Positions 15,980-38,573 of a stretch of 64,000 bases of DNA are shown in pieces. This stretch comes from a virus: positions 32,774-96,773 of the IMG/VR virus record IMGVR_UViG_3300030518_000006, one strand, 5' to 3'. Each line of letters opens with the position of its first letter. Position 1 is the stretch's first letter. The notes below the pieces were generated by a model. It was not told the origin of the DNA. It saw only the letters and a list, made by a program, of their open reading frames with translations, and did not search any database. The position numbers and the translations under genes are program-made.

Positions 15980-16617
15980 GCGCCAAGCTCACCATCGCCG
16001 CTCCACGCCAACCCGTCGCCCAGCTCCCCATCTGGGACTGGGTTGGCGACGTGCAGTTCTATTCGATGGCCCAGACCCGCAACGCCACAGGAGAATTCTG
16101 TGAAGAAGCAACCCGGCATCTCCTCGGCGGCGAGCGGCTCTCCACCCAAGGAACGGTGGACATCTGCCCGGACATCCGATTGGACGAGCATCGTTATCTT
16201 GAGGTTAAATCGGTGGGGGATCGGCGATGCGCCCTCCTCTACGAGCATATCCTCGACCGAACAATCCGGTTCGTCCGCCGTAACCGGGTCAAGGTCTTCT
16301 ATGTCTTCTGGATCCACACCGTTCCCGCCGCCAAGTGTCCCAGTCTATTCGATTTGCGACGGGCGATGGCCGCATCTATTGATCGTGTCATCATCGTCCC
16401 CTTCACCCAGGTGCACGAGGCGATCAAGGGCATCACGCCCCGGAAGATGAACTACCGGGTCCGGGAGCACAGCGGGGAGCAGATCGCTATGCTCGGCTGG
16501 TCGATTCCGGTCAAGCAGCTGAAGGCCTGGAGCGTCGGACAGCCGCGAATGGCGTTTGACACCGAGGTCTTCGGGTATTCGATGGGTGGGTATCCGGTCT
16601 ATGGAGACGTGCGATGA
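15976..16617 (+). CDS. PD-(D/E)XK restriction-endonuclease-like protein
   Basis: GEFCE ... CPDIRLDEHRYLEVKS fits PD..ExK. Confidence 0.55.
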   Translation: MSAKLTIAAPRQPVAQLPIWDWVGDVQFYSMAQTRNATGEFCEEATRHLLGGERLSTQGTVDICPDIRLDEHRYLEVKSVGDRRCALLYEHILDRTIRFVRRNRVKVFYVFWIHTVPAAKCPSLFDLRRAMAASIDRVIIVPFTQVHEAIKGITPRKMNYRVREHSGEQIAMLGWSIPVKQLKAWSVGQPRMAFDTEVFGYSMGGYPVYGDVR

Positions 16618-16754
16618 CCCTTCCCCCGCCCGTCATCTCGCTTGAGTCGCTGCTCTTCTGGAACCTGGCCGCCGCGGTCGGCATCACACTGCTCGTCCGG
16701 TTCTTGGTGCTCTGGCTCGCCCGTACCCTATTTGGAGAGGGCCATGACCACTGA
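16614..16754 (+). CDS. Small membrane protein (copy 1)
   Basis: MTLPPPVISLESLLFWNLAAAVGITLLVRFLVLWLARTLFGEGHDH; ATGA overlap; duplicated at 20005. Confidence 0.6.
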   Translation: MTLPPPVISLESLLFWNLAAAVGITLLVRFLVLWLARTLFGEGHDH

Positions 16755-16890
16755 GCAGCTATACTACGCGACCGGCATCGCTTCCAATGTTCTGACCATC
16801 CTGACCTGCGCCTACACCATCTGGACGCTCCGCAGCTGGGTGAGCAGCACGGTGAAGAAGGCGCTCGACGACGTGAAGAAAGTGATCTGA
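16744..16890 (+). CDS. Small membrane protein (copy 1)
   Basis: MTTEQLYYATGIASNVLTILTCAYTIWTLRSW...; duplicated at 20135. Confidence 0.6.
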   Translation: MTTEQLYYATGIASNVLTILTCAYTIWTLRSWVSSTVKKALDDVKKVI

Positions 16891-22848: not shown

Positions 22849-23520
22849 ATGGCTGGCTACCCCTCGATCAATGCTCCCGGCGCCCGTTCGCTCGCGGTGC
22901 CCCCGCCCAAGAGCCTGAAGATCCCGCTCGGGCGCCGACTGGACGCCAAGATGGCGAAGAACCTCATGTCCGCCCGCCCCAAGCGCGTGCCGCGCGACAA
23001 TGGCGGCGGCGGGTTCTTCCCCGGCATGGGTGAAGAGATGGACGAGACCGAGGTCAAGGTCGGGTACTCCGATCTCGGCCGGTGGTACGGCCCGAACCAG
23101 CGCCGCCCGGCGACCAGCGGCATGGCGCGCACCAATCGCCTTGCCGGCCTGGGCGACACCCCGACCGCCGGCTCCGGCACCCCCGGTGCGGCCACCGCGG
23201 CTCCCGCCCCGATCATCAAGCGCGTGCCCAATACCCCGCGTCACCTGGTGACCCAAGGCACCCCGACATCGATCTCCTCGGTCTCCGGCCTCGGCGCGCT
23301 GCACGCGGCAGCCCACGCCGCCCACGCCAAGACCAAGCATGCGGCGATCGTCAAGCACGCGGCGATCAAGGTGCACAAGCTCGCCCCGGCACACGACGGG
23401 TTCATGCCCGGCTTCGGCGCCTTCGACATGGCGAGCCTGACCAGCCCCAAGATGCTCATCGGCGGGGCGCTCGCCTTCGGCGCCTGGTATTTCCTGCTCC
23501 GCAAGAAGCGCCGCGCCTGA
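22849..23520 (+). CDS. Tail-anchored virion membrane protein with GFMPG/GLG motifs
   Basis: GFFPGMG, LAGLGD, SGLGA, DGFMPGFGA; C-terminal TM + RKKRRA. Confidence 0.7.
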   Translation: MAGYPSINAPGARSLAVPPPKSLKIPLGRRLDAKMAKNLMSARPKRVPRDNGGGGFFPGMGEEMDETEVKVGYSDLGRWYGPNQRRPATSGMARTNRLAGLGDTPTAGSGTPGAATAAPAPIIKRVPNTPRHLVTQGTPTSISSVSGLGALHAAAHAAHAKTKHAAIVKHAAIKVHKLAPAHDGFMPGFGAFDMASLTSPKMLIGGALAFGAWYFLLRKKRRA

Positions 23521-23523
23521 GCC

Positions 23524-23973
23524 ATGGGCTGGCTGACCCCCGAGATCACCGCCCCCGTCACCCTGAAGCTCACCGCTGATGACGTGCGGCGCGAGGCCCT
23601 GGGGCGGATCCTGTCGCTCTCCGGGGCAAGTGTCGGCATCATCGGGGGCATCCTGATCCTGTCCGCGAATCCGGCGCTCAAGGGCGCGGTCACCGCCGGA
23701 CAGGGCCAGACCATCACCCTGAGCGTCGCGGACGCCAAGAAGAGCGCCCTGGGCAAGTCCTTGGCCCTCATCGGTACTGGCATCGGTGTGGCAGGCTCCC
23801 TGCTGGTGATGAGCTCGAACCCGAAGTCCAAGGCCAAATTCGCGTCCGCCTATGACGCCCTGCCCGCCGGACTCAAGACCCACAAGAACGTGCTGATGGC
23901 CCTCGGTGGTGCCGCCGTGGTCGGCGGGATCGCCTACATGCTCAAACTCCAGAACTCGCAGTACGCCACATGA
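23524..23973 (+). CDS. Three-TM membrane protein
   Basis: Three Gly-rich hydrophobic segments. Confidence 0.65.
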   Translation: MGWLTPEITAPVTLKLTADDVRREALGRILSLSGASVGIIGGILILSANPALKGAVTAGQGQTITLSVADAKKSALGKSLALIGTGIGVAGSLLVMSSNPKSKAKFASAYDALPAGLKTHKNVLMALGGAAVVGGIAYMLKLQNSQYAT

Positions 23974-25763
23974 GCGACAACATCTTCACCCCGGTCGGCA
24001 ACACGGACGAGGCGTCGGCCCTGATGGGAACCAGCGGCCGGGTCTGGTCCCCCTTCTCCCCGTTCTTCAACCAGCGCGCCGCGGTGAAGCGAGACTTCGC
24101 CGAAGAGCGCGGCCGGTTCAAGCGCATCATGCGCCGCAATCCCCTCTCCGAGCAGGAGAAGCTCGCCCTGGTCAGCGGCACCGATCCCAAGGCTATCGTC
24201 CCGGTCACTGCCTCGCTCGCCGTCGGCGGCTTGATCGTGAACCGTGCTTGGGAGGATGCCGCTGACTACTGCGAGTATCTGGTCCGCCACTACCATTCCC
24301 GGATAGGTGGTGCGCGAGCGAAGGCGGACGCTGCGCGAGCGAAGAAGGGGCAGGGCCCGAAGATCATATCCAGTTCAGCCATTACCTGGGCGGTGGCGTT
24401 CAGCGCCATCGGCCAATACTGCAGGGCCCTGGCCGAGGGCCGGGAGCCGACGCGCCCTGCGCGCACCATCGCCGACCGGAAGGTGGGGGCGGTGATCTCG
24501 ATGTGGGATGACGTCCGCAAGTCCTGCCTGGCCGCGGAGGGCAACGTCAAGCTGCCGTTTGCCGCCTATTCCGAGATGCCGGTGGTGACCTGCCCCGGTG
24601 CCGGTGGGGTGACCAAGTTCTCCGGCCTGACGGGCAAGACCCTCGGCGTGGCAGTGCCAACCGGTCCCGATGTCCGCGGTTGCGCGTCCTTCTGCTACTC
24701 CCTGAAGGCCTTCGGCAAGCCCACCTGCGTCGCCCGCCAGCTGATCCTGACCCTCGGCGCGGCTGTGGATCCGGTGCGCCACGCCCAGGTAGTCACCGAG
24801 CAGATGACCAAGCTCGCCAAGAAGGGGACCAAGATCCTGCGCCTGTTTGTCGATGGGGACTTCCGCAGCGAAGCCTCGATCATTGCCTGGATGGACCACT
24901 GCGTCCGCCCGCTGCATGCGCTCGGCGTCACCGTCTATGGGTACAGCAAGTCGTGGGAGCATCTCCATGCCGTGCACCGGCAGAAGGGCGCATCCTGGTG
25001 GCCGACCAACTATGTGATGAACATCTCGAGCGGCAGCCGCTTCGCATCGGATCCGACCTGGCAGGCGCGCATCCGTGAACTGCCGGTTGCCCGCGGCGGT
25101 TTCCTGGCGGTGGATCCAATCCAGCGTCTGCTGTGGAAGGCGATGACCAAGGTTCACGGTGAAGCGGTCTGGCAGAAGTACTGCAACGCGGCCAGCCGAC
25201 ACGTCGGTCACCCCGGTGCGGCCGAGAAGCTCCTGCATGCTGTGAAGTCCATGATTGGCAAGGCGAACCCGGCCCTCGTCACCGATTACAACAACTACGT
25301 CAACACCATCCACATCATCGAGAATAAGCCGAGTGTGCTCAAGCGCATCGCCTCGATCGCCGGCGAGAAGGCACTCAAGCCGGGCCCAGTTGTCCAGGCC
25401 AGCACCTGGGCCTTCTTGTCCGAGCTGGTCAAGGGGCAGGAGATGCCGTGCCCGATCGCATGCGGGTCGTGCCCAAAGACCGCGATCATCACCCACGACA
25501 AGGTTGTGCGCGCCGCCTTGCAGCCGGAGCTCGATGCCCTCGGGGCCGAAATGCAGAAGAAGCACGGGATCTCGGAGAAGGAGCGCCGAGACTGGGAGGA
25601 ACACGTCCGGGGCACCGACGCGACGACCGTGTCTGCTGGCGAGGCTGAGGCCCGCAAGAACTACCGCGCCCAGGTCGCCGCCCAGATCGAGAAGGGCTCA
25701 CCGCTCATGCACTGGTGCGGGAACAAGAAGATGAAGCAAGACATCATCATCGGGTTGCATTGA
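23970..25763 (+). CDS. GP88-family-like Cys-motif protein with N- and C-terminal extensions
   Basis: VTCPGAG..CASFCYSLKA..RLFVDGDF..YGYSKS..PTNYVMNIS resembles phage GP88 family. Confidence 0.65.
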   Translation: MSDNIFTPVGNTDEASALMGTSGRVWSPFSPFFNQRAAVKRDFAEERGRFKRIMRRNPLSEQEKLALVSGTDPKAIVPVTASLAVGGLIVNRAWEDAADYCEYLVRHYHSRIGGARAKADAARAKKGQGPKIISSSAITWAVAFSAIGQYCRALAEGREPTRPARTIADRKVGAVISMWDDVRKSCLAAEGNVKLPFAAYSEMPVVTCPGAGGVTKFSGLTGKTLGVAVPTGPDVRGCASFCYSLKAFGKPTCVARQLILTLGAAVDPVRHAQVVTEQMTKLAKKGTKILRLFVDGDFRSEASIIAWMDHCVRPLHALGVTVYGYSKSWEHLHAVHRQKGASWWPTNYVMNISSGSRFASDPTWQARIRELPVARGGFLAVDPIQRLLWKAMTKVHGEAVWQKYCNAASRHVGHPGAAEKLLHAVKSMIGKANPALVTDYNNYVNTIHIIENKPSVLKRIASIAGEKALKPGPVVQASTWAFLSELVKGQEMPCPIACGSCPKTAIITHDKVVRAALQPELDALGAEMQKKHGISEKERRDWEEHVRGTDATTVSAGEAEARKNYRAQVAAQIEKGSPLMHWCGNKKMKQDIIIGLH

Positions 25764-25832
25764 CGTGCTAACTGGCCCCCGTTCACGAATTCCAGTAGAA
25801 TCCGCCACAACCCTGGATACAGTAGGCCACCT

Positions 25833-26267
25833 ATGATCCGCCGACGCCGCAGCCATCGCCGCTTCCGCCGCAACGCGCGCCCTGGTGAGAACCAGATCCC
25901 GACCGTGCGCATCGTCCGCCGGCCGAGCAAGAACCCCCGCCGCTTCATCCGCCGCAATGTGCCGATCACCCCGGCGCAGGCTGCCGCGATGAAGGCTGTC
26001 CTCCGAGCTCACGGCTACCTCAAGACCAACCCACTCCGCCGTCGCCACAAGCGGCGCAATCCCCGAAAGCACCGCATGGCACGCCATCACCGCAAGGTCC
26101 GCCGGAACCCCGCACCCCCGAAGGGCAAGCGCGCTGGCAGCGTGTTCAAGCGCAAGGGCAAGTGGTTCCGCATCTCACTCAAGAAGGTCCGCAAGGGTCG
26201 CCGCGTCGTCCGCCGCCGCGTCACCGTCAAGACCACCGCCCGCGCCGCGAAGCGCAGCCGCCGCTAA
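25833..26267 (+). CDS. Arg/Lys-rich core (DNA-condensing) protein with NP motifs
   Basis: 144 aa, extremely basic; SKNP, KTNP, RRNP x2. Confidence 0.7.
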   Translation: MIRRRRSHRRFRRNARPGENQIPTVRIVRRPSKNPRRFIRRNVPITPAQAAAMKAVLRAHGYLKTNPLRRRHKRRNPRKHRMARHHRKVRRNPAPPKGKRAGSVFKRKGKWFRISLKKVRKGRRVVRRRVTVKTTARAAKRSRR

Positions 26268-26301
26268 GCCTGCTCACCCTCACCTGATTCTGGAGACTCC
26301 C

Positions 26302-26532
26302 ATGCCCCGTCGCCGCCACAGCCGCTACCGCCGGAACCCCGGCAAGCTCCCCGTCAAGGTCACCTTCCGCAAGGGTGGCAAGCACGTGGTGATCTTCCGT
26401 CACCACAAGGCCACCGCCGCGACCAAGGCCAAGCGCCGGGCCGCGGGCAAGCGCCTTGCCAAGATGTGGACCGCCAAGGAGCGGATGGCGAACCTGCGCA
26501 AGGCGTGGGCTGCGAACCGCCGCCGTCGCTGA
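26302..26532 (+). CDS. Small basic core protein
   Basis: 76 aa; RRNPGK; RBS GGAG. Confidence 0.7.
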   Translation: MPRRRHSRYRRNPGKLPVKVTFRKGGKHVVIFRHHKATAATKAKRRAAGKRLAKMWTAKERMANLRKAWAANRRRR

Positions 26533-26605
26533 GTCGACCGTCAGCTGACCCGCAGCCCGGTCCTCCGCATCCTTGCGCGACCGGGCGGCACACCAGGACG
26601 AGCAC

Positions 26606-27697
26606 ATGCTCCCGCTCATCATCGGCATCGGCGCCGCAGCCCTCCTCCTCGGCCGTAAGGTCGTACGACGGACACGTCGGAATCCGCGGACGTATCGGCG
26701 GGTGAGTCGGAGGAATCCGCTAGAGGCCTATCACTTCTACTTCAGCACCCACCCGTCACTGATCCACGGGAAGCGTATCGGGTGGACCCGTTACGGCATG
26801 AGCGCCGAGCAAGTGAAACGGCTTGGCATCGCAGCAGCGAAACATGACTACCCGAAGGCCTGTGACTTCGCAGTGGCGAAGATCAAGAAAGGTTTACGGG
26901 CCAACCCCCTCCGCCGCGGCTCCTCCCGTGCCACCATCAGCGGCAACATCCGTAAGCTGATCCATGAAGGGCGCCCGCAGAAGCAGGCCATCGCCATCGC
27001 GCTGCGCACCGCTGGTGTCGCACGACGCAACCCGACCAACTGGGAGCAGCTGTTCGCCCAGGAGATGGCCCGCCAGCGCGCCGCTGGCACTGCAGCGCCC
27101 AAGCCGACCGGGTATGCAAGCGTCGCGACGATGCCGAACCCCGGGAAAATAGGGAATCGAATCGTCGCGCGTCACATGATCATGACGCAGGGGCGTGATA
27201 AATCTCTGCGCGAAGCGATTGATAAGCAACTCATGTATTCCCCTGGATCCAGGGAGCGTAAGAACTGGGCAGAGATTGCCCGTATCCTCGCGGGCAAGAC
27301 CAATCCACCCCGCCGCAAGGGCAAGCGCAAGGTCCGCCGCTCAAAGATCTCGGTGAGTCAGGCTGCGGCGCGGCTGATGCAGTGGCGGTGGCATCACAAC
27401 CCGGGAGGCAGCGATCTGGTGCCCTGGATTGTCGAGACCACCGAGATGCGCGGCTTCTCCCACGGCAAGCCCAACATCCGCACCGAGAAGAGCGCCTTCC
27501 GCGGTAAGAGCCACACCGCCAAGGCTCTCGCTGCTTGGGTGCTGCGCTACAACCAGTCCTTCACCTCGGGCGGGGTCAACAGTCACGCTTCCAAGGCCTT
27601 CGGCTACGAGCCCTACGCCTTCAAGGCCAAGCTGATCAACCAGCGCAATGGGCGAGTCGCCGCGACCTACAGCGCTCCGAAGTTCCAGGTGCTCTGA
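26606..27697 (+). CDS. N-terminally anchored basic multi-module protein with seven NP motifs (putative polyprotein)
   Basis: Start MLPLIIGIGAAALLLG; RRNP, RRNP, RANP, RRNP, MPNP, KTNP, HHNP separate distinct segments. Confidence 0.7.
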   Translation: MLPLIIGIGAAALLLGRKVVRRTRRNPRTYRRVSRRNPLEAYHFYFSTHPSLIHGKRIGWTRYGMSAEQVKRLGIAAAKHDYPKACDFAVAKIKKGLRANPLRRGSSRATISGNIRKLIHEGRPQKQAIAIALRTAGVARRNPTNWEQLFAQEMARQRAAGTAAPKPTGYASVATMPNPGKIGNRIVARHMIMTQGRDKSLREAIDKQLMYSPGSRERKNWAEIARILAGKTNPPRRKGKRKVRRSKISVSQAAARLMQWRWHHNPGGSDLVPWIVETTEMRGFSHGKPNIRTEKSAFRGKSHTAKALAAWVLRYNQSFTSGGVNSHASKAFGYEPYAFKAKLINQRNGRVAATYSAPKFQVL

Positions 27698-27700
27698 CCC

Positions 27701-30700
27701 ATGCGCTCCGCCACCCCCTCCCTCGCCGACGGCGACATCAACGCCGACTACAGCGTCCTGCCGGAGAACGGCAACGACGCGGTCGACGCGACCGTCCAGA
27801 AGATGGTCGAGATGGCGGCCGGCAAGTGGGGCCGCGAGAGTCCCAAGATCCGCGCTGCGGCGATCAACATCGTGCGGGGTCTGGATCCGATCACTGGCGA
27901 ACGATTCGCGCCTCAGGTCGCCAGCAAGGACTACTACGGGATGCTCGAGCAGATCCACAACTGGGTCCGCGACAACATCATGTATGTCAAGGACGTAGTG
28001 GGTCAGGAAACCCTGAGTTATCCCGAAGAAACGCTCTTCAACTCCCGTGCAGAGGACTGTGATGGGCAAGTGATTCTGGAGATGGCCCTCCTCGGCTCGA
28101 TCGGCTTGCAGAGCTATCCCGTCATCGTCGGGATGTTCCCGGGCCACTACTCACACGTCTACATGTATGCCGAGGTGCCCCCGGGGCGCCATCGCAACGC
28201 CGACACCACCTGGGCCGCCGATCCCATCATGAAGGACTGGCCGCTTGGCAGGGAGGCCCCGGCTGATAGGGTCAAGGCTAAGAAGGTCTACTCGAACCTC
28301 GCAGGATTTAACATGCCACTCAACGGATATGCTTCTTCCGACGCGGCGTTCTCTCCCCAGGACGAGCTCGAGGCCACGCAAGTCGGCACCGTGCTCGCCA
28401 CCCGCCTGACCGACTCCGGGGGTGCTGGGCAGATCGTCAATGCGAACCGCCTGACCCAGTGGGGCGATGAGCTGGACGACATGTTCAATGCCGAAGCGAC
28501 CGTCAATCCGATGCAGGCCGCGCCTGCCAGCCTGCTCTACGCCCGCGGCCCGGTGGTCGCCCGTGCAGCACGCGAGCAGACCTCCTACCTCAGCGAAGCC
28601 CCGCTCGGCGGGGGACGCAACCGGCCCGGGATGCGCCGTGGCCCCCTGATCATCACGGTCAAGGACAAGGCAGTCGGCGATTCGGTCACCAAGCCCAAGG
28701 CTCCGACCGTCAACGGCCTGATGGGCCTGGCAGACTACCTCGGTGAGCTCGCCCCGATCGCCAAGGTGGTCGGCAAGCGCATGAGCGTGAACGGCAAGCG
28801 CGACGCGCTCCATGCCACAGCGGCGGCAGCCCACCTCGCCAAGAACCAGGCCAAGAAGGCGACCAACCGGGTGGTCAAGCTGCAGCGCGACGGGTTCATG
28901 CCCGGCTTCGGCGCCGACATGCAGCCGGACAAGACGCTCGATGTCGCCATGCAGATCGAGAAGCTGGCCCACCAGGTCTCGGCCCAGGCCGATCAGATCG
29001 CCCAGCTCGCCGCCGGCAGCAGCCCACTCCGCCAGCAGGCCCTGAGTGTCGATCTCGGGGCGATGGACTACATGAACGAGCATGCCGCGGTGTCGGACCT
29101 GCTCGACAACATGCAGCTCCCCAACGTGCCGACCAAGGACATGGCCAAGCTCAAGTCCGTCGCCCTGGTCAACTGCATCCAGGATCCGGACGTCAAGCAG
29201 CTCGCCGTCGATCTCGCCCAGACCGATCTGCCGACCGCACCTGGTGCACGCGTCAAGACCCGGCTGCCCGAGGGCGCCATCGTGCGTGACCAGATGGGCA
29301 AGGTCATCCAGAATGGCGGGGGTGATGATAGCCTGGCCGGCCTGGGCGAACTCACCCGCAAGCGCCGCATCAAGCGCGCCCTGGCCGAGTTCAACGAGAG
29401 CACCGACACCAGCGCCATCGCCAACGCCCTGCGCGCCTCGGCGAATGGCCTGGCGGGCTACGCGAATGAACCGGGCCTCGGGCGTTCCCTGAGCCAGGCC
29501 ATCAGCGGCGTGGCCAAGTCCGTGGTCGCCAGCATCACGGTCCCCGTCAAAGCTGCGGTCGCGACCGTGGTCGACCCGATCAAGCTCGCCCAGACCGTCG
29601 CCACCGGCGGCTCGGTGAAGGCGGCGCTCACGAGTGACGTCCAGAACGTCACCAACCCGATGAACCAGGCGCTCAAGCAGATCGTCACCAGCACCCAGAA
29701 GGCTCCCTCGACCCCGGCGACCCCGGCGACCCAGTATGAAGACGCCAACGGCAATATCATCAGCGCTGGGTTGTACAACAGCCTGATGTTGAACCCGTCG
29801 ACCCCTGAGAGTTGCTTCGACGCGAACGGCAGCGCCCTGAACACGACCGGCTGCGTCTACGCGCCGGGCACCCCGGGCGCGACCGTGACCCAGACCACCG
29901 GCGCGTCGACCCTGTCCCAGTTCCCCGGCGGGACCTGCTTCAGCGCATCCGGTGCCTCGACCGGTGCGACCGGATGCTTCAGCCCGTCGACCGGTGCGGC
30001 CTGCTGGACCTTCACCAGCGCCACGACCGCCCCGACCGCGACCAACGCGGCCCCGGACTGCCCGATGGCTCCGGTGTCTGGATACAACCCCCAGGTCATG
30101 GGCCCCTATGCCAGCGGCCCGGGCGCTCAATGCTTCAACGTGACCACGGGTCAGCCGACCGGTGTGCCGGGATGCACGAGCCCCTCGACCGGTGTGGCGT
30201 GCTACGCCTGGCAGGGCCCGTCCGCCCCGCCGGTCGCGACCAATGCCGCGCCTGACTGCGCCGGGGCGACGTACAATCCGTACGCTGCCCAGCAGCCGTA
30301 CTATCCGCCCGGCGGCGGTGCGTCACCGTACGACCAGTCCACGCCCGATGGCACCAACTACGACCCGAATACGGGTGAGAGCCTGACCTCGACCCCGGAC
30401 TACTCCAACCAGGGTCCCCCGGACGACAGCGGCTTCGGGCCCGACCAGATGGGCCCGGCGTCCTATGCGGACAACAGTCAGCAGGACGAGAACACCGTGG
30501 CGGTCTCGGCCAGCGGTGGCGGCGGGTTCGACCCCTCGGGCAACTCGGGCATCACCGCCGGCGGCCAGTCTGACAGCGGTGATGATGGCTCGGATGATGG
30601 CGGCTCGGATGATGGCGGCTCGGATGATGGCGGCACTGATGATGGCTCGGGCGATGCGACCGATGTGTCCCAGTACAACGCCCCGTCCCAGGCCCCGAAG

Positions 30701-31027
30701 CACAAGAAGCACAAGTATTACAACATGGACACCGACTCGGGCGGTGACAACTCGGACACCAGCGACAGCGGCGAGGCCTCCGACGATGACAGTGACCTCG
30801 ACACCGGGATCAACGGCGACGTGGCCACGGGGGACATGTACCCCGAGGACGATCTCAACGAGGATGGGGGCGCCGGCTACGGCCGGGGCACCGCCCTGAC
30901 CCCGTCGATCGAAGGCCTCGGGGCCTTCTCCGCCTCCAGCCTGGTCAAGCCGGCACTCGCGATCGGCCTGGGCATCATCCTGTGGAAGACCGTCGGTAAG
31001 AAGCTCTTCAAGCGGAAGCGTGCCTGA
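27701..31027 (+). CDS. Transglutaminase-like (Cys-His-Asp) protein, candidate maturation protease, with long tail-anchored C-terminal region
   Basis: YVKD..ETL..P..EDCDG, SHVY, WAADP; then GFMPGFG/GLG motifs, Cys-rich repeats, acidic DDGGS repeats, TM + KKLFKRKRA. Confidence 0.8.
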   Translation: MRSATPSLADGDINADYSVLPENGNDAVDATVQKMVEMAAGKWGRESPKIRAAAINIVRGLDPITGERFAPQVASKDYYGMLEQIHNWVRDNIMYVKDVVGQETLSYPEETLFNSRAEDCDGQVILEMALLGSIGLQSYPVIVGMFPGHYSHVYMYAEVPPGRHRNADTTWAADPIMKDWPLGREAPADRVKAKKVYSNLAGFNMPLNGYASSDAAFSPQDELEATQVGTVLATRLTDSGGAGQIVNANRLTQWGDELDDMFNAEATVNPMQAAPASLLYARGPVVARAAREQTSYLSEAPLGGGRNRPGMRRGPLIITVKDKAVGDSVTKPKAPTVNGLMGLADYLGELAPIAKVVGKRMSVNGKRDALHATAAAAHLAKNQAKKATNRVVKLQRDGFMPGFGADMQPDKTLDVAMQIEKLAHQVSAQADQIAQLAAGSSPLRQQALSVDLGAMDYMNEHAAVSDLLDNMQLPNVPTKDMAKLKSVALVNCIQDPDVKQLAVDLAQTDLPTAPGARVKTRLPEGAIVRDQMGKVIQNGGGDDSLAGLGELTRKRRIKRALAEFNESTDTSAIANALRASANGLAGYANEPGLGRSLSQAISGVAKSVVASITVPVKAAVATVVDPIKLAQTVATGGSVKAALTSDVQNVTNPMNQALKQIVTSTQKAPSTPATPATQYEDANGNIISAGLYNSLMLNPSTPESCFDANGSALNTTGCVYAPGTPGATVTQTTGASTLSQFPGGTCFSASGASTGATGCFSPSTGAACWTFTSATTAPTATNAAPDCPMAPVSGYNPQVMGPYASGPGAQCFNVTTGQPTGVPGCTSPSTGVACYAWQGPSAPPVATNAAPDCAGATYNPYAAQQPYYPPGGGASPYDQSTPDGTNYDPNTGESLTSTPDYSNQGPPDDSGFGPDQMGPASYADNSQQDENTVAVSASGGGGFDPSGNSGITAGGQSDSGDDGSDDGGSDDGGSDDGGTDDGSGDATDVSQYNAPSQAPKHKKHKYYNMDTDSGGDNSDTSDSGEASDDDSDLDTGINGDVATGDMYPEDDLNEDGGAGYGRGTALTPSIEGLGAFSASSLVKPALAIGLGIILWKTVGKKLFKRKRA

Positions 31028-31029
31028 TC

Positions 31030-31905
31030 ATGCCCCTCCCCCGCCCCTTCGTCGACAATTCCTATCGGACTGAGAGCGTCGATCTCCAGCCGTTCGGGAA
31101 CACCGTGTCGATCGAGACGGGCTCGGACAACCCGTTCGAAGACGACCAGGGCATCGAGGTCGTAACCCAGCAGAGCGGGGGGATGGCGGGGCCTGATCCA
31201 CGGATGCGCTCGCGCAAGACCCTGGTCCGGGGAACACGCGTCACCGCGCATCCCGCCGGTGTGTCCCGTACGTACCACACCCGCAGCCAGGCCAATCGCC
31301 AGGGCTTCATGCCCGGGATGGCGGGGTTCGCCGGTCTGGGTATCGACATGCCGACTGATGACAGCGGTAGCGGCGGCGATGCCACCCCGGCCGATGCCAC
31401 CGACTTCAACGCCCTGACCACCGACCAGGATGCCTCCCTGTTCGCCCAGCCGGCACCCCAGAACCAGAACCTCTTCGCGATGCCTGCGCCGGGCCAGCCG
31501 GGCAGCGGCCTGCCCGCACCGAGCGCCGCAGCCACGCCTGCAGCTGCCCCTGCCGCCGCGCCTGCCGCTCCTGCAGCAGGTGGCGGGGGTGCAAAGGCTG
31601 CCAGTGGTGCGGCCACCGCCCTCACAGCGTTGACCGCCCTGACCCAGGCTGCCGGCCAGACCGGGACCGCGGTGCTCGCTGCCCAGACCAAGGCGGCCCA
31701 GGCGAAAGCAGCCCAGAGCAAGCTCCCAGCCGCAGCCAGCGCGCTCGGCAAGCAGGTCGAAACCTACTGGCCCTACATCGCTGGCGGTGTGGGCCTGGTG
31801 CTGGTGCTCGGCCTCGTCTTCGGTGGTGGCTCCCGCTCGACCACCGTCATCGCCGCGCCTGCAGCTGCTCCCGCCAAGACCAATCCCCGCAAACGCCGTC
31901 GCTGA
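31030..31905 (+). CDS. Tail-anchored virion protein, paralogue A
   Basis: ~100-aa leader ending GFMPGMAGFAGLG shared with next gene; TM then KTNPRKRRR. Confidence 0.75.
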   Translation: MPLPRPFVDNSYRTESVDLQPFGNTVSIETGSDNPFEDDQGIEVVTQQSGGMAGPDPRMRSRKTLVRGTRVTAHPAGVSRTYHTRSQANRQGFMPGMAGFAGLGIDMPTDDSGSGGDATPADATDFNALTTDQDASLFAQPAPQNQNLFAMPAPGQPGSGLPAPSAAATPAAAPAAAPAAPAAGGGGAKAASGAATALTALTALTQAAGQTGTAVLAAQTKAAQAKAAQSKLPAAASALGKQVETYWPYIAGGVGLVLVLGLVFGGGSRSTTVIAAPAAAPAKTNPRKRRR

Positions 31906-31914
31906 GAGATACCC

Positions 31915-32607
31915 ATGCCACTCCCCAAAGCATTCGTCGATAGCTCCTACCGCACCGAGCCCGTCGATCTGCAGCCCTTCGGCAACACGGTCTCGATCGA
32001 GACCGGCTCGGACAACCCGTTCGAGGATGACCAGGACGTGGAGATCTTCTCCCAGCAGAGCGGCGGGATGGCCGGGCCCGATCCGCGCATGCGTTCCAAG
32101 AAGACCCTGATCAAGGGCACCAAGGTCACGACCCACCAGGCTGGTGTGGCGCGCACCTACAAGACCCGCAGCCAGGCCAATCGCCAGGGCTTCATGCCCG
32201 GGATGGCGGGGTTCGCCGGTCTGGGTGCTGATCCGGCGCCAGGCCTGGACCAGGACGAGGGCAATCCGCCCGGCTACGTGCCGCCGGCTGGCCAAGCGGC
32301 CCCTGCATCCCCTGCTGCCCCTGCTGCCCCGCCCACCGGCGCCTGGGCCGCCCTGACGAGCCTGTTCTCCGCGGTTCCCGCCGGCGTCACCGCCTATGAG
32401 ACCGCCAAGAGCAACGCTCCCAAGCCCCCAGGCATGCCGCCTGCGGGCATGCCCCCGGCCCCCGGCAAGAGCACCAGCATCACCAAGATGCTGCCCTGGA
32501 TCCTGGGCGGTGTTGGCGTGCTGGTCGTCGGCGGCCTCCTGGCCGGCCGCAGCAAGCCGGCAACCGTGGTCGCCACCAATCCCCGCCGCCGGCGCCATCG
32601 CCGCTAA
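31915..32607 (+). CDS. Tail-anchored virion protein, paralogue B
   Basis: Same leader; TM then ATNPRRRRHRR. Confidence 0.75.
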   Translation: MPLPKAFVDSSYRTEPVDLQPFGNTVSIETGSDNPFEDDQDVEIFSQQSGGMAGPDPRMRSKKTLIKGTKVTTHQAGVARTYKTRSQANRQGFMPGMAGFAGLGADPAPGLDQDEGNPPGYVPPAGQAAPASPAAPAAPPTGAWAALTSLFSAVPAGVTAYETAKSNAPKPPGMPPAGMPPAPGKSTSITKMLPWILGGVGVLVVGGLLAGRSKPATVVATNPRRRRHRR

Positions 32608-32647
32608 CCCCACCAGACCTCTGCCCCTCTCCTGAAGGAACCGACCC

Positions 32648-33109
32648 ATGCAACGTGACATGTCCTACGAGCTCGACTCGGTGTTCTCTGGCCGAGGCGC
32701 TGGTGAGCTGGTGCAGGTCCAGCAGCCCCGCACCCGCATGAGCCGGACTCCCGGCCTGCAGCAGACCACCCGGTCCTCGGTGACCAAGATCAGCGCGCCG
32801 CTGGATCACAAGCTGTCCACGAGCCATCCCCACAACATCACGGCCCACAACACCAAGAGCCTGGCTCATGGTCTCGGCAAGCCGTTGAACGCCCGGTTCT
32901 ATACCGAGCCGAGCGACCTGGCAGGCATCGAGGATCTCGCCTGCGATGATGGGGACATGGGGATGGGGATGGGGGCCTATGATGACGATGACATGCCCTT
33001 CGGCGACCTGACCCTCCCGTTCATTGGCCCGGTCAGCAAGACCGGCGTCGCCATCGCCCTGATCTCCGGCTTCATCGCGTGGAAGCTGTTCAAGCCCAAG
33101 CGCGCATGA
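32648..33109 (+). CDS. Tail-anchored virion protein
   Basis: HGLG, DLAGIE; C-terminal TM + KLFKPKRA. Confidence 0.7.
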   Translation: MQRDMSYELDSVFSGRGAGELVQVQQPRTRMSRTPGLQQTTRSSVTKISAPLDHKLSTSHPHNITAHNTKSLAHGLGKPLNARFYTEPSDLAGIEDLACDDGDMGMGMGAYDDDDMPFGDLTLPFIGPVSKTGVAIALISGFIAWKLFKPKRA

Positions 33110-33594
33110 AAGCGATCCTGGGCATCGGCCGGCTGCTCGCACTGCACCTGGTCGATCCCACCACCGGTCGAACCACCACACGAAAGACCCCTGGCACATG
33201 GCTCGGATGGGACACCACGACGCGGCAATTCCTGCTCTGCAAGCCCAAGGGGCGCAGCCGGGCACCGTTACCGTCACGCGTCGTGCGGGCACATCGGCGA
33301 TTCCACGCCCACGATCCGGCCTCTGGTGGGCGCCTGGTGGAGGTGCCGACACCGATCGGACGGCGCCAGCAGATCGCGCTGATCAAGGCCCTGGACTACT
33401 TCGTGCCCAAGCAAGTGATCAGCCCCGACAAGAATCCGTTCGGGTGGACACACGCCTTTGGGGACACCGGCCACAAGGGCGGAACCTATACCGCGAAGGT
33501 GATGCCGGCGCTGGTCAGGGACTCGCGCGGTAACCTCTTCATCAAGCGGCGGAAGGGTAACATCTTCACCGTCGACACCTGGCTCCGAGGATAG
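33106..33594 (+). CDS. Hypothetical basic virion-module protein
   Basis: ATGA overlap; 162 aa. Confidence 0.6.
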   Translation: MKAILGIGRLLALHLVDPTTGRTTTRKTPGTWLGWDTTTRQFLLCKPKGRSRAPLPSRVVRAHRRFHAHDPASGGRLVEVPTPIGRRQQIALIKALDYFVPKQVISPDKNPFGWTHAFGDTGHKGGTYTAKVMPALVRDSRGNLFIKRRKGNIFTVDTWLRG

Positions 33595-33600
33595 AACACC

Positions 33601-34161
33601 ATGGCCGCCCTCCCCTTCAAACTCAAGATGAACGCCAAGACGCTCGGCATCGGCGCCGGTGCCCTGGTCGGCCTGTTCCTGGTCTACAAGCTCGCCTTCC
33701 ACAAGAGCAAGAAGGCGGCCGAGGATACCAGCACCTCCGGTGATGCCGCGGCCCTCGCCCAGATCCAAGCCCAGCTGAACCAGCAGGGCCAGACGCTCGC
33801 TGCGGCCACGGCGGCACCTGCAGCCCCAGCCTACGGCACCCCCGGATATGGGTTGCCCTACACCCCGGCGTATGCCGCTCCCACCTACGGCACCCCGGGC
33901 TATGTGGCCCCCTATGCGGCCCCGGGCACCACCCAGGCCTCAGGACCTCCTGCTACCCCGCCGGTCGGGGGGTACCAGTGGATCTGGAACGGCGCCGCCT
34001 GGACCCAGACCCCGGCCGCCACCCCGGTCGGGATGCACTGGCAGCAGCTGGGATCGACCTTCCAACTCGCCCCGAACGCTTCGAGCGTGGCCTACATCGA
34101 TCGCCGGCCGGCGAGCCCGGCCTCGATCATCCCGACCACGGTGCTCACGCCGCCGAACTAG
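33601..34161 (+). CDS. N-terminally anchored Pro/Ala/Tyr-rich protein
   Basis: TM near the N-terminus, AP.YGTPGY repeats. Confidence 0.65.
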   Translation: MAALPFKLKMNAKTLGIGAGALVGLFLVYKLAFHKSKKAAEDTSTSGDAAALAQIQAQLNQQGQTLAAATAAPAAPAYGTPGYGLPYTPAYAAPTYGTPGYVAPYAAPGTTQASGPPATPPVGGYQWIWNGAAWTQTPAATPVGMHWQQLGSTFQLAPNASSVAYIDRRPASPASIIPTTVLTPPN

Positions 34162-34764
34162 CAGATCTCCCGGTAGAGCATGCCGTCGAGCTGGACGCGC
34201 ACGTCCACGTGGCGGTCCCTCCAGTCGATGTCGCCGGTGTTGAGGACCAAGCTGAAGTGTTGAACGGGCGGGATATACAGGCTGGGAGTGATACCCAGGT
34301 GCTTGAGCCGAATCGGCGGCAACCCTGGCGCAGCAGCGGCGTCCTTCTCCACGTCGTCATCCCGCTCCATGTTCATGAGCGGCAGGTTGAAATAGAGCTT
34401 CTCACCGATCTGAAAGTAGAAAGACGCCTTCGAGATATCGACGACCTTGGAGAGCGAGATCCGGATCCCGTCGAGGAGAAATCGTTTCGGCCAGGTGAAT
34501 TGCCCGGCCGTGCGCATGTTGGTGTAGGCTTCAGACCGGCCGTTCGGATTATGGAAGAAGCAGATGGTGCTGTGGGCCGCCCACGGCTGGGTGTCATAGA
34601 TCGAGCGTCGCCCTTTCTCGAGGCGGACCCCTCCCTTGCGGTGGTCCTTGACATGGACGTACTCAACCGGGACTTCGACGAGCCAGGGGGCCCCCGTCCT
34701 TCTCTCCTTCATATACCTGGACGATCGAGCCTCTGCCCGGGTCTTCGAAGATCTTTTCAGCCAT
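34158..34764 (-). CDS. Capsid-protein paralogue, apparently frameshifted at a G5C5 run (or starting at 34712)
   Basis: RLEKGRRSIYD, YTNMRTAGQFTWPKRF, GEKLY, YIPPVQHF, LDGMLYREIC; RBS AAGGAG + ATG at 34764 is out of frame by one base. Confidence 0.7.
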
Positions 34765-34789
34765 GATGAATCTCCTTGTGGTGGTAGAG

Positions 34790-35692
34790 TTACTGGATTT
34801 CCCGGTGGATCGTGCCATCGAGTTGCACCCGGATCTCGGCCGACTCGAAATGCTTGCCGCCGGTATTGATGGTCAGGCCGAACCATTGGACCGGCGGGAT
34901 GTAGATCGTCGGGGTGATGCCCACGTGCTTCAGACGCATGCGCGGGAGCAGGGGGCCGTACTCGCCATCCTTGATCGGGTCGTCGTCCCGCTCCATGTTC
35001 TTGAGCGGCATGGTGAGGTACCTCTTCTCGCCGATCTGGAGTTCGAAGTGCGCCTCGGAGATGTCGACGAGGTGGGAGAATGAGATGCGCACGCCATCGA
35101 GATCGAAACGCTTGGGCCAGGTGAGCTGACCTGAGGTAGCTAGATTGGTGATTGCCGGCCCCCGATTCGGCCCGCCGCCGGTCTGGAAGAAGACGATCGG
35201 GGGTGGATTAGCGATGTACTCATCGCGGCGTCCCATCGGCACGTTGAACATGGTCCCATGGACCTGGGTGTCGTAGAGCGGCTGGCGACACGATTCCAGG
35301 CGGATCGTTCCGTTCTGAGCATCCTTGTGCTCGGTGAAGCGCGCACCGGGGGATGGTTTCAGGTCATCCAGGCCACGCGAGCCCTGCAAGGCATCATCCA
35401 GCTGCTTGGCAAGATCTGCGTCTGATACGTCCTCGAAGCCGGTCAGGGATTGCCAGTACTCCTCGGTCGAGCGAAAGACCTGGCCTTTCTCCGGCTTGGG
35501 GTCCTTGGTCTTCTTCGGTGGTTTGGTCGCGGCAGGCATGGAGAGATCTCCTGGCATGGGGTTGGTGGTGCGCGTCATGTGACGTTGGAGCACCTCTTGG
35601 ATGGTGAGCTGGTAGGACTCCGAATGTGCTTTGTACCAAGCCAGCACATCGGGATCGATGCGCATGGTGATCGAGGTTTTCTTCTTGGGCAT
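34790..35692 (-). CDS. BrnA-like ribbon-helix-helix domain fused to a capsid-protein paralogue
   Basis: N-term MPKKKTSITMRIDPDVLAWYKAHSESYQLTIQEVL (BrnA-like); C-term IRLESCRQPLYD..TNLATSGQLTWPKRF..GEKRYLTMP..IYIPPVQWF..LDGTIHREIQ. Confidence 0.8.
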   Translation of the reverse strand: MPKKKTSITMRIDPDVLAWYKAHSESYQLTIQEVLQRHMTRTTNPMPGDLSMPAATKPPKKTKDPKPEKGQVFRSTEEYWQSLTGFEDVSDADLAKQLDDALQGSRGLDDLKPSPGARFTEHKDAQNGTIRLESCRQPLYDTQVHGTMFNVPMGRRDEYIANPPPIVFFQTGGGPNRGPAITNLATSGQLTWPKRFDLDGVRISFSHLVDISEAHFELQIGEKRYLTMPLKNMERDDDPIKDGEYGPLLPRMRLKHVGITPTIYIPPVQWFGLTINTGGKHFESAEIRVQLDGTIHREIQ

Positions 35693-35697
35693 ACCTG

Positions 35698-35726
35698 TAT
35701 GTACGTAGATACGTACAGACTTGCAA
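35698..35726 (-). promoter_or_regulatory. Leaderless promoter with palindromic operator
   Basis: Minus strand TTGCAA-17-TACATA-5-ATG; TGTACGTA-GA-TACGTACA palindrome at 35700-35717. Confidence 0.65.
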
Positions 35727-35888
35727 GACCCGAGACGTACATACGAGCTGGGTCTTGGTGCATCGGGCGAAGGGCATAGGCTGGGCCGTGTCGCATGTGG
35801 TTGCGCCGCCTCCTCTGCTGGGGCCGCCCGATCAACAGCATATGTGCAATCGCTTCTGCCGCTCCTGATGAGCGTGACGAGAACCCCG

Positions 35889-36728
35889 ATGCCCATGATG
35901 CTGATGTCCAATCCAGGTCTGCACCTCGCCCTGCTCGGGAACCCGTATCGCGGTCGTTCCCGCAAGCGCCGTCATTCCTGTTCCAACCCTCGTCGTTCAC
36001 ACCGCCGTGCGTCCGCACGTCGGCACCGTCGTTCCCACACCCAAAGGAGAAACCCCATGGGATTCGCCAAGCAGTACGTGAGCTCCGTCAAGGCAGCTCC
36101 CCGTGAGATCCTCGGGATCTTCAAGGGCAAGAACAAGATCAAGAACATCGCCTTCGCGCTCGGTGGCGCCGTCGCCACCTACGCCCTGGGCGGAATCGTC
36201 AACACCTCACTCGTGACCCCCGGTCTCAACGCCATCCCTGGCGCGGGTCCGGCGCTCAGCGGCCCGATGGCCAAGCGCGTGATCGGTGCGGCAGTGCCCT
36301 TCACCCTCGGCTTCGTCGCCAACAAGTTCATCAAGGGTGACCTCGGCAAGGCCCTGGTGGTTGGTGGGGCTATCGCCTCGCTCGCCGAGGCGATCAGCCC
36401 CGGGCTCATCGCCCGCCTGGTCTACCACACCCCGGCTGTCGGCCCCGTGGCCGTTGCTGCAGCGCCTGCTGCCGCTGTCCAGGGCCCGGTGAACGGTCTG
36501 AATGGTCTCGGGGGCTACGTTGACGCGCGTGCGTACAACGGCACCGGGGACATGGCCCCGCTCGACGGCTATGTCGACGCCCGCGCCTACAACGGCACCG
36601 GCGAAGAGCTGGCCGGCTATGTCGACGCCCGCGCCTACAACGGCACCGGGGACATGGACGATGACCTGGCTGGCATCGGCAGCGACTACCTGACCGAGAG
36701 CACCAAGTACATGGAATCCTATCTCTGA
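35889..36728 (+). CDS. Putative major membrane/scaffolding protein
   Basis: Basic N-terminus with four NP motifs, Gly-rich hydrophobic core, three GYVDARAYNGTG repeats; directly upstream of the capsid gene. Confidence 0.65.
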   Translation: MPMMLMSNPGLHLALLGNPYRGRSRKRRHSCSNPRRSHRRASARRHRRSHTQRRNPMGFAKQYVSSVKAAPREILGIFKGKNKIKNIAFALGGAVATYALGGIVNTSLVTPGLNAIPGAGPALSGPMAKRVIGAAVPFTLGFVANKFIKGDLGKALVVGGAIASLAEAISPGLIARLVYHTPAVGPVAVAAAPAAAVQGPVNGLNGLGGYVDARAYNGTGDMAPLDGYVDARAYNGTGEELAGYVDARAYNGTGDMDDDLAGIGSDYLTESTKYMESYL

Positions 36729-36926: not shown

Positions 36927-37502
36927 ATGCCCGTCTTCCGCACCGTCAAGGATGCCCGCTCCGGCTCGATCCGGCTCGAAGCCATCCACCAGCCGCTGTA
37001 TGACAGCGTGCTGCTCGCCACCACCCTGCAGACGTCCGCAACGCTGTTCTCCCTCGGGAACAACGGTCGCTCGGCGCTCTACACCAACCTCCAGACCGCT
37101 GGCCAGCTCAGCTGGCCGAAGCGCTTCTCGATCCGCGCCCTGCGTCAGGTGCTCGGCTTCAACAGCGCGACCTACGCCAACGTGGCCGCCTTCTGGGCTG
37201 CGGCGTTCTACCAGCTGCAGGTGGGTGAAAAGGTTTATCTCACCATCCCGGCGTTCATCCTCACCGCCGGCGGCGGCCTGAGCCAGCAGACCCTGGTCCC
37301 GGCTACCGCCACCACGGCGGGAACCATCAACTGTGAAACCGGCTGGCCGGACCAGCGGAATATCTACTCGCTGCTGCACTCGATTTATTTGCCGCCCGTG
37401 CAGAACTTCTTCCTGGCACTGACGACCGCTGGCGGGACCCTGACCGCTTCGACGTACTGCCACATCTTCCTGGAAGGTGAGCTGCTCCGCGAAATCCAGT
37501 AA
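36927..37502 (+). CDS. Putative major capsid protein (single jelly-roll-like)
   Basis: 191 aa beta-rich; strong RBS GGAGGAG, last gene of the virion operon, followed by a strong terminator; three paralogues elsewhere. Fold is inferred. Confidence 0.6.
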   Translation: MPVFRTVKDARSGSIRLEAIHQPLYDSVLLATTLQTSATLFSLGNNGRSALYTNLQTAGQLSWPKRFSIRALRQVLGFNSATYANVAAFWAAAFYQLQVGEKVYLTIPAFILTAGGGLSQQTLVPATATTAGTINCETGWPDQRNIYSLLHSIYLPPVQNFFLALTTAGGTLTASTYCHIFLEGELLREIQ

Positions 37503-37526
37503 GCCAAACGGTTTACAAGGATTCAC

Positions 37527-37563
37527 GAAAAACCCCGGGCTTCGGCTCGGGGTTTTTCCTTTT
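37527..37563. terminator. Bidirectional intrinsic terminator
   Basis: GAAAAACCCCGGGC-TTCG-GCTCGGGGTTTTTC between convergent genes. Confidence 0.9.
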
Positions 37564-37566
37564 CTC

Positions 37567-37851
37567 CTAGGCCTCCGGAGGCCGCACTACCACCTCCAAC
37601 AACCCATCCAGCGCACTGACGAACTGCTGCTGCACCGCTTTGGCCAGCTCCTCGCTCGGGTATTCGCAGCTGTACATCTGTCCGCTGGACATCTCCAGCT
37701 GGATGACCCAGCCCAGGTCCGGCTTCTCCTGATCCGGCCGCAGCGGTTTGCTCGATCTGCGCAGCGCCGCCGGGCGCATACATACGATCTGACCCGCCTC
37801 GATCCACTGCTGGTGTTCGGGGGGTGATCCAGGATTGAACAGCACAAGCAT
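37567..37851 (-). CDS. Hypothetical protein
   Basis: 94 aa, RBS GGAGG. Confidence 0.55.
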   Translation of the reverse strand: MLVLFNPGSPPEHQQWIEAGQIVCMRPAALRRSSKPLRPDQEKPDLGWVIQLEMSSGQMYSCEYPSEELAKAVQQQFVSALDGLLEVVVRPPEA

Positions 37852-37883
37852 ATTGCCTCCTACGGAACGGGTTTCATAGTGGG

Positions 37884-38111
37884 ATGATGGACCTGCACGA
37901 TGCGATTGCCTCGCTCCCTGAGATGGAGCGCCTGATCATCCGGCTGCGGTGGCTCGAGCAGTTCTCAGTGGATGACATCGCGCATTGCCTCCGCATCGCC
38001 CCCGACCAGGTACTCGCCTACGACACCCAGGCCCGCGACCGCCTACGCCGGCGGCTTGACCCAGCTGACCTGCATTCCTTCGATCTGGGCCCACTTGAGC
38101 ACGTCGGCTAG
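37884..38111 (+). CDS. Sigma-70 region 4-like HTH protein
   Basis: AIASLPEMERLIIRLRW..SVDDIAHCL..ARDRLRR. Confidence 0.65.
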   Translation: MMDLHDAIASLPEMERLIIRLRWLEQFSVDDIAHCLRIAPDQVLAYDTQARDRLRRRLDPADLHSFDLGPLEHVG

Positions 38112-38573
38112 CTGGTGCCACTCGTCCGCCCACCGGTCGTTCCCTGCAGGCCCGGCAGTGCTGCGCAAGGGGTCAATGGCCCCGGTGAAATCGGTGTTCC
38201 CCTCCTTGTCATCCCCGAAGTAGTCCACCTCGGTCGCTGCCAGGGTGTGCGCCAGGCCCAGGGCCATGAGCGATGAGAACCGCTGGTGGATGGGCAGCTC
38301 CTCCCAGGGAATCCGTCGCAGGTTCCCCAGCGGGATCTTGAGCTGGATATGGGCATCCCAGGCCAGGCGCAGTGCGTCCGCGATCGAGCAGAGTCCGACC
38401 CTGGGGGTCTGGCGATACCAGGTGAGGGCCTCCCAGTCGCCGATGCACCACCAGTCACAGGGCCAGAATTCGACCGCAGCATTGACCCCGATGATCACAT
38501 CATAGACGCCCTTCCGCCAGGCCCAGGACGCCTTCAGGGAGGGCCCTGGGCAGAGGATCGCGGCTCGGGTCAT
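38043..38573 (-). CDS. DUF115/GT29-like Rossmann protein (glycan modification)
   Basis: AAILCPGPSL..IIGVNAA..DWWCIGD..EVDYFGDD. Confidence 0.5.
   Translation of the reverse strand: MTRAAILCPGPSLKASWAWRKGVYDVIIGVNAAVEFWPCDWWCIGDWEALTWYRQTPRVGLCSIADALRLAWDAHIQLKIPLGNLRRIPWEELPIHQRFSSLMALGLAHTLAATEVDYFGDDKEGNTDFTGAIDPLRSTAGPAGNDRWADEWHQLADVLKWAQIEGMQVSWVKPPA

Follow-up and report, generated by a model that had tools for sequence, protein, structure and literature searches.

Introduction

Polyvalent proteins of phages and conjugative elements are strings of unrelated, quickly reshuffled domains encoded beside virion genes, and these chains have been proposed to be packaged and sometimes proteolytically processed (Iyer, Burroughs, Anand, de Souza and Aravind 2017, PMC5512222). 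The paper that describes them holds no Asn-Pro or linker code (the words 'Asn' and 'linker' each occur 0 times in it). Self-cleavage of the Asn-Pro bond via a succinimide is established in FlhB/YscU (N↓PTH) and in reovirus mu1 (Asn42) (PMC3207474), and N↓P self-cleavage is also established in RsgI (PMC10328401). In this study, bases 32774-96773 of the 96,773-base record of an uncultured virus (IMGVR_UViG_3300030518_000006, here G000) have been analysed; this stretch of 64,000 nucleotides is referred to as the window, positions are those of the window, and open reading frames (ORFs) are named by their first position (Table 1). The Asn-Pro dipeptide (NP) was found to be a selected, Asn-specific seam at which the parts of a set of basic proteins from the presumed virion module adjoin. 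Three kinds of part were distinguished: a short, hydrophobic membrane anchor, Arg-rich peptides (4-17 residues) and small modules (20-110 residues). The literature searched did not contain a description of such seams in phage proteins.

The polyvalent protein is the nearest published concept to these chains. Here also, unrelated domains are joined in each chain and the architectures vary among G000, its relatives G002, G003 and G004 (Table 1) and database homologues. The record is viral, and the neighbouring genes encode capsid-like paralogues (the capsid assignment being a lead) and many membrane proteins. The present chains differ in being small (76-400 amino acids, aa), strongly basic and often started by a hydrophobic anchor. 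Pfam gave no match on any protein of the basic gene cluster (25833, 26302 and 26606), so that effector or enzyme domains such as ART, MuF, nucleases and metallopeptidase were not found in the cluster proteins, and only the small PHROGs 2423, 9817, 6353 and 20712, which have no assigned function, were seen. In adenovirus, a tailless virus with capsid and core, the core precursors pVII and pX/mu contain Arg-rich DNA-condensing peptides which are cut by adenain, and the cut is proven. The likeness to this system lies in the Arg-rich peptides within precursors and in a virus-encoded Cys protease, which is here a candidate only. The adenain site, however, is (M/I/L)XGX-G or (M/I/L)XGG-X as against N-P, the enzyme is of the adenain/Ulp1 type as against transglutaminase-like, and no membrane anchor is present there.

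FlhB/YscU (MEROPS N6), mu1 (N7) and RsgI use the same Asn-Pro pair, and two of these precedents are capsid or membrane proteins. Whereas they cleave once in a dedicated folded domain, the chains studied here have up to 9 sites each, in apparently unstructured joints. NPTH was found in 0 of the 127 seams considered below, and no homology to the Asn-lyase families was detected. The intein-like HN[CST] sequence is absent from the seams. Skipping of the 2A/StopGo type was rejected, as the seams are without the D(V/I)ExNPGP upstream consensus (among the 127, NPG occurs 20 times and NPGP once).

Enrichment of Asn-Pro in the presumed virion module

Expected NP counts were obtained by shuffling the residues within each protein. 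The module at 21-37.5 kb contains 37 NP against 12.8±3.3 expected, and 0 of 2000 shuffles reached 37, whereas little enrichment is seen in the remainder of the 96.8-kb genome (48 against 35.2). A comparison of the module with the remaining proteome had been suggested in a preliminary description of the window, and strong enrichment of the module is thus seen after correction for composition; all the NP sites listed in that description are present in the translations. The seven proteins which it had flagged contain 23 NP against 4.7 expected, and the other module proteins contain 14 against 8.0. NP in a basic context reaches 3.6 per 1000 aa in the module and 0.14 elsewhere, which makes it 26 times denser. 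Single ORFs also stand out, namely 25833 (4 NP, 0.53 expected, p=2e-4), 26606 (7 NP, 0.88 expected, p<2e-4), 35889 (4 NP, 0.85 expected, p=0.007) and 23524, which was missing from the earlier list (2 NP, 0.13 expected, p=0.007). The single NP sites of 23970, 26302, 31030 and 31915 were each not significant alone in the shuffles.

The enrichment is most visible from the side of Asn. In the three-gene basic cluster, whose proteins together have 157 basic and 19 acidic residues, Pro follows 46% of all Asn against 10% elsewhere (Fisher p=4e-6). In each of four viruses, 34-52% of the Asn residues of the basic cluster precede Pro, as compared to 9-11% elsewhere (Fisher p 3e-8 to 8e-6).

Composition, a repeated DNA word or chance are very improbable as the source of the NP excess. 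The region is indeed rich in GC and Arg, and microhomologies are present between one linker or NP site and another, but these are only of 14-31 nt (with one 54-nt duplicate in G003), the codons of R-R-N-P vary from site to site, and the within-protein shuffles never reach the observed count. Moreover, the pattern recurs in relatives of 47-74% identity and in low-GC, Lys-rich homologues. Since the codons differ and the microhomologies are short, a DNA-level repeat was ruled out as the source of NP, and the selection is therefore on the protein.

As a separate observation, NP in a basic context was also found far from the virion module, upstream of the window (G000 24648-25819, window coordinates -8125 to -6954). 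These sites lie near the N-terminus of a 349-aa protein (FRSNPP), called a 'kinase' by the earlier reader, and in a 41-aa peptide (VKRNPPRR).

Seam architecture and module exchange

In silico cutting of 25 cluster proteins at their 127 NP produced 42 short pieces of 4-19 aa with a mean Arg+Lys content of 60%, many of them of the form P-R4-5...R-N, and 85 pieces of 21-184 aa. At 112 of the 127 seams, at least two basic residues are present within 4 positions. Mostly R, S, T, H or K stands before Asn and R, G, K, L or S after Pro, and N-P alone is constant. Up to 9 NP occur per protein, exactly at the module borders. Seventeen of the 25 proteins have a hydrophobic start of 14-18 aa, after which the first NP and an Arg run follow within about 10 residues. 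The pattern is sharper in the relatives (47-95% identical) than in the window. Their format is a hydrophobic N-terminus, NP, an Arg-rich peptide, NP, a small module, NP and so on, often closing with NP and an Arg tail; the hydrophobic N-terminus (14-18 residues) closes with (S/C)-N-P or is joined to N-P by a few basic residues. A lipobox reading of the anchors ending in LC-NP was discarded, as the window's own anchor is without Cys and there is no basic n-region. Whichever role the seam has, the Arg-rich pieces stand out as candidates for the neutralisation of DNA, and the hydrophobic N-termini as candidates for the link to a membrane.

NP was found at module borders in the low-GC, Lys-rich database proteins P0035, P0056 and P0137 too, and the seam is therefore independent of Arg richness. 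A search for related loci with the low-GC NP-seam proteins matched only a small module, in a tailed-phage contig. The element ending in WRWHH-N gave 6 close matches in a search for what follows it.

The comparison of related genomes has revealed that swaps, deletions and fusions of modules all run exactly from one NP to another; this delimitation of exchangeable modules is the main structure, which the preliminary description had overlooked. The genes flanking 26606 are 95-100% identical between G004 and the window, yet G004 has a different N-terminal half of 26606 and lacks one NP-to-NP module. This difference is a recent cassette replacement. Window 26606-27300 and G004 16335-16810 were seen to encode unrelated N-terminal halves with breakpoints at the NP/Arg linkers. 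In P0004, four Arg stand in place of the phrog_2423-like module which P0003 has between the same two NP. Two or three genes of the window and of G003 correspond to a single fused chain in G002.

Conservation in homologues was found for many NP sites, though not for all. Both NP of the 23524 protein recur in G004 and in G003, whose homologue is 55% identical, and RRNP(L/P)S of the 23970 protein is kept in its 46%-identical G002 orthologue. In case of 35889, one example of several in which seams are kept down to the 47% relatives, G002, G003, G004 and L037 have the SNP, GNP and RRNP sites and L036 has the first two. The intervening Arg stretch, in contrast, varies in length and sequence. NP142/143 and NP265/266 of the 26606 protein are invariant in 7 homologues. 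The 25833 protein has orthologues in G003, G004 and G002, being fused with the next genes in G002, and one of its four NP sites is not kept in G003. The NP-Arg tails of the 31030 and 31915 proteins are lineage-specific; G004 keeps NPRHRRR in 31030, and the G002 and G003 homologues end in KRK or KKKRK after the membrane helix. The 26302 protein stands by itself in the window and in 18 relatives from databases, whereas in G002 and G003 other modules are fused upstream of it; its NP site is also not constant. The TTNP after the RHH domain of the 34790 protein, which had been set aside as possible chance, is probably the same kind of seam; the G003 homologue has an extra Cys4 zinc-ribbon module at this junction, with NP on both flanks.

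Asn specificity and the phrog_2423-like module

In the 25 cluster proteins, the 127 N-P compare with 16.4 expected (7.7-fold), whereas the other pairs are at 0.76-fold (S-P), 0.76-fold (T-P), 0.70-fold (G-P) and 1.58-fold (D-P). A generic helix cap or turn is disfavoured by these values, because Ser, Thr and Asp would then precede Pro too.

The phrog_2423-like module of the 26606 protein is also present in cultured tailed phages, where it is a stand-alone protein with an M-P-L start and a basic tail. The stand-alone gene adjoins head genes in the cyanophages KBS-S-2A and MED4-184 and is located elsewhere in the genome in phiCbK and RSB1. In Acinetobacter Obolenskvirus phages, the module is the N-terminus of the annotated head maturation protease. 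The latter position hints at a head-interior or targeting element in tailed phages too. In the Acinetobacter phage P919 (L030:2498-3835) and about 79 related records, the module was noted as the first ~40 residues of the protease.

The residue before the Pro of this module was counted in the 150 best representatives of clusters at 50% identity. M-P at residue 2 accounts for 78 occurrences, and M or V precedes Pro in 24 more, which are most likely miscalled starts. In the remainder Asn stands before Pro in 25 of 31, behind unrelated upstream sequences (totals 102/25/6). Further, P0022 has an M-P copy and an N-P copy of the module in tandem. The census and P0022 together indicate therefore that the Pro belongs to the module and that Asn appears only when something precedes it. 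Such an equivalence of M and N is what an N↓P cut regenerating the same Pro N-terminus predicts.

Features of the window and genomic setting

Table 1. Positions of the seam-bearing proteins and neighbouring features in the window, and the related contigs used for comparison
Feature or contig	Strand	Size	Description
23524..23973	+	149 aa	Membrane protein with internal repeat; two hydrophobic helices, each ending in (A/S)-NP (codons 23668-23673, 23818-23823)
23970..25763	+	597 aa	GP88-family protein (Pfam GP88 E=6e-10); RRNP at aa 55-58 after a ~55-aa N-terminal leader (NP codons 24138-24143)
25833..26267	+	144 aa	40% Arg+Lys (57 basic, 1 acidic); 4 NP: SKNP, KTNP, 2x RRNP
26302..26532	+	76 aa	Basic protein, start MPRRRH..RRNPGKLP
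26606..27697	+	363 aa	Module string: hydrophobic N-terminus, two Arg peptides, about five small modules, 7 NP between
26906..27028	+		phrog_2423-like module (E=1.4e-12); starts PLRRGSS, contains KQAIAIAL; NP at both ends
27701..31027	+	1108 aa	Protein with C-terminal membrane anchor; N-terminal ~200 aa, predicted transglutaminase-like Cys peptidase domain
31030..31905	+	291 aa	Membrane protein; KTNPRKRRR tail after C-terminal helix (31882-31905 with stop)
31915..32607	+	230 aa	Paralogue of the 31030 protein; ATNPRRRRHRR tail (32578-32607 with stop)
34790..35692	-		BrnA/RHH domain (Pfam BrnA_antitoxin E=1.5e-9) fused to capsid-like paralogue; junction TTNP (codons 35558-35563)
35889..36728	+	279 aa	Membrane protein; first 56 aa with MP..MSNP, GLHLALLGNP, Arg-rich stretch, RRNP (4 NP)
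36927..37502	+	191 aa	Putative major capsid protein; context only, without NP
G004		34 kb	About 95% identical to window
G002		45 kb	Capsid 72-73% identical to window
G003		109.5 kb	Complete, terminal repeats; capsid 71-73% identical to window
L037, L036			Viral contigs; 47% on 27701 protein
L038			Soil metagenome contig; 62% on 27701 protein

A rightward operon extends across 20-38 kb and encodes many small membrane proteins and three paralogous capsid-like proteins of ~190 aa. It is a reasonable inference that this region is the virion module of a tailless membrane virus; the assignment goes only so far because the capsid is itself a lead and because Terminase_6N, HK97-capsid and FtsK families were not found in the genome. 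The 191-aa putative capsid protein has three paralogues in the genome and relatives in four viral contigs at 71-95% identity; it has no match in Pfam and PHROG and no relative among 50,697 phage records. Its ESM-Atlas model (predicted template modelling score 0.75) has the PM2 P2_N/P2_C clusters as nearest named clusters at 0.77, and this likeness to PM2 P2 is only a lead. Capsid-like paralogues number three to four per genome (window 34158-35692 on the minus strand and 36927-37502 on the plus strand; G003 37300-38349 and 50005-50856). The fused BrnA/RHH capsid-like gene diverges from the 35889 membrane-protein gene across a spacer of ~196 bp.

A motif G-(F/Y)-(M/V)-P-G-(F/M)-(G/A) is common to four membrane-anchored module proteins and is kept in G002, G003 and G004. 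Its sites are at window 23398-23418 and 28892-28912 and near aa 92 of the 31030 and 31915 ORFs, and the G003 homologue of the 31030 protein has two copies. It may serve for docking to the capsid or membrane, or mark a further site of processing.

At the left end of the window, an exact 880-bp direct repeat (42-921 and 1324-2203, starts 1282 bp apart) contains two identical 80-aa ORFs and may be a tandem duplication or an assembly artefact. A 1071-aa ORF at 3680-6895 on the minus strand has an atypical codon-position GC (GC2 > GC1) and matches PHROG families of virion structural (E=4e-11) and tail-spike proteins (E=4e-7). The protein is possibly a spike for host recognition; tail, terminase and HK97-capsid signatures are otherwise lacking in this virus.

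Possible roles of the seam

We favour, with some reserve, the reading of NP as a processing site. The chains would be cut between Asn and Pro, via Asn cyclisation (succinimide) or by a viral protease, and the cut would free protamine-like Arg peptides, which would neutralise the packaged DNA, and would release modules starting with Pro. Processing at N↓P best explains the Asn specificity and the M/N equivalence. The sole trans-acting protease candidate in the module, as judged from its sequence, is the N-terminal domain of the 27701 protein. This domain has a Pfam Transglut_core match at E=0.01 (below cut-off) and an ESM-Atlas similarity of 0.93 to Transglut_core/Peptidase_C93 clusters. C120, H152 and D174 are invariant in 4 orthologues, and the gene is located directly downstream of the basic cluster in G002, G003, G004, L037 and L038. 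A profile search of PDB sequences with this domain gave no match, and the AlphaFold2 models of the domain and of the 26606 protein (predicted local distance difference test, pLDDT, 35 and 43) were too poor for fold searches. We infer the cutting, its agent, the binding of DNA and the location inside the particle. The preliminary description had proposed a common cleavage or packaging signal linking Arg peptides to the membrane. A shared, selected signal bordering Arg-rich peptides stands, while cleavage, packaging, condensation and virion location are conjectural parts of that proposal.

Several points weigh against the processing reading. The N↓P cut is deduced from the arrangement of residues in the sequences. 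The seams are placed, at low confidence, in predicted coil between unrelated modules, without the folded context needed by the known Asn lyases; therefore a trans-acting enzyme or an assembly trigger would be needed. Most endopeptidases disfavour Pro at P1', and a cell-wall hydrolase acting at entry would be an equally good reading of the transglutaminase-like domain. The presence of NP at the ends of membrane helices fits a role as helix stop, and C-terminal pieces of 5-6 aa would be released without obvious purpose. On the tree of the 40-residue phrog_2423 module, 13 switches between M-P and N-P are seen but supported branches require only 2 or more, the tree being too unresolved for counting independent switches. 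In the 76-aa family, the 18 database relatives of the 26302 protein usually start with M-A-R/K-R, which is far commoner than M-P, and in the fused forms this Met is retained, four to seven residues past the upstream NP. The 26302 ORF was on these grounds ruled out as a second case of M for N. Its internal RRNPGKLP is matched by RRTSGKLP, RRVSGKLP or RSSTKLP in about 80-90% identical relatives; replacement of NP by Ser- or Thr-containing pairs at this site would fit a hinge or a dispensable cut.

The main rival explanation, somewhat less likely than processing, is that NP is an uncleaved hinge and that the chain stays intact. NP would then be a strong helix stop and start, either as an Asx-Pro turn or with Asn as cap and Pro as the first residue of the helix. 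The membrane helices, Arg-rich DNA-binding linkers of SPKK or AT-hook likeness and modules would then fold independently, and the chain would hold DNA or cargo at the viral membrane. Turns and caps made by Asn-Pro are known (Asx-Pro turn, helix N-cap). All 7 NP of the 26606 protein are in coil between predicted helices or strands, one helix starting two residues past NP142/143 and another stopping just before N265, in a model whose confidence is low (pLDDT 43). In the 23524 protein and the N-terminal anchors, NP comes after hydrophobic helices, and at one homologous site it alternates with T-S or S-S. Basic tails without NP follow modules too (the C-termini of 25833 and 26302, P0008 and P0010), and very short C-terminal pieces would be pointless if cut. 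The SPKK and AT-hook minor-groove motifs have a small polar residue and Pro followed by basic residues and are repeated in DNA-condensing tails, and 38 seams are NP followed by two basic residues. S-P and T-P are, however, depleted in these proteins, which makes the seam an analogue and not a member of that class. Moreover, a hinge leaves the exclusive use of Asn unexplained, as Ser, Thr, Asp and Gly are not or only weakly enriched before Pro, and no residue is needed ahead of the Pro in the stand-alone phrog_2423 module, although Asn occupies this place in 25 of the 31 fused cases.

It is less probable still that NP in its basic context is a recognition motif which is not scissile, serving as a docking or encapsidation tag or as the substrate of a transglutaminase-like enzyme (Asn side-chain amide chemistry or cross-linking). 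Such a role would agree with the presence of the motif in otherwise unrelated proteins, including enzymes outside the cluster (the GP88-like protein and the 349-aa ORF) and the 41-aa peptide, and with the conservation of a transglutaminase-fold domain beside the cluster, this fold acting on side-chain amides. But no partner or binding site was identified, a tag need not occur up to 9 times per protein exactly at module borders, and the M/N equivalence of the phrog_2423 module is left unexplained.

Conclusion

Processing at N↓P may form part of a new maturation system, which we put forward more tentatively than the cut itself. Membrane-anchored polyproteins would be cut at many Asn-Pro seams, by a trans enzyme or on an assembly trigger, yielding genome-condensing Arg peptides and changeable cargo that starts with Pro. 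The viruses concerned would be a new prokaryotic virus lineage with a membrane, ~100 kb of DNA and apparently no tail, and the Asn-before-Pro rule would extend to a module shared with tailed phages. If the seams are cut, they would be a multi-site Asn-Pro processing code in prokaryotic viruses, of which no report was found in the literature searched, and a bacterial-virus counterpart of adenovirus core maturation. This would explain how about 100 kb of DNA is neutralised inside a membrane and how small cargo proteins are freely swapped. Further, a two-residue rule would allow the polyprotein products to be deduced from metagenomic sequence itself. Even without cutting, NP remains a linker grammar of striking strictness and Asn specificity, and a possible natural marker of domain boundaries.

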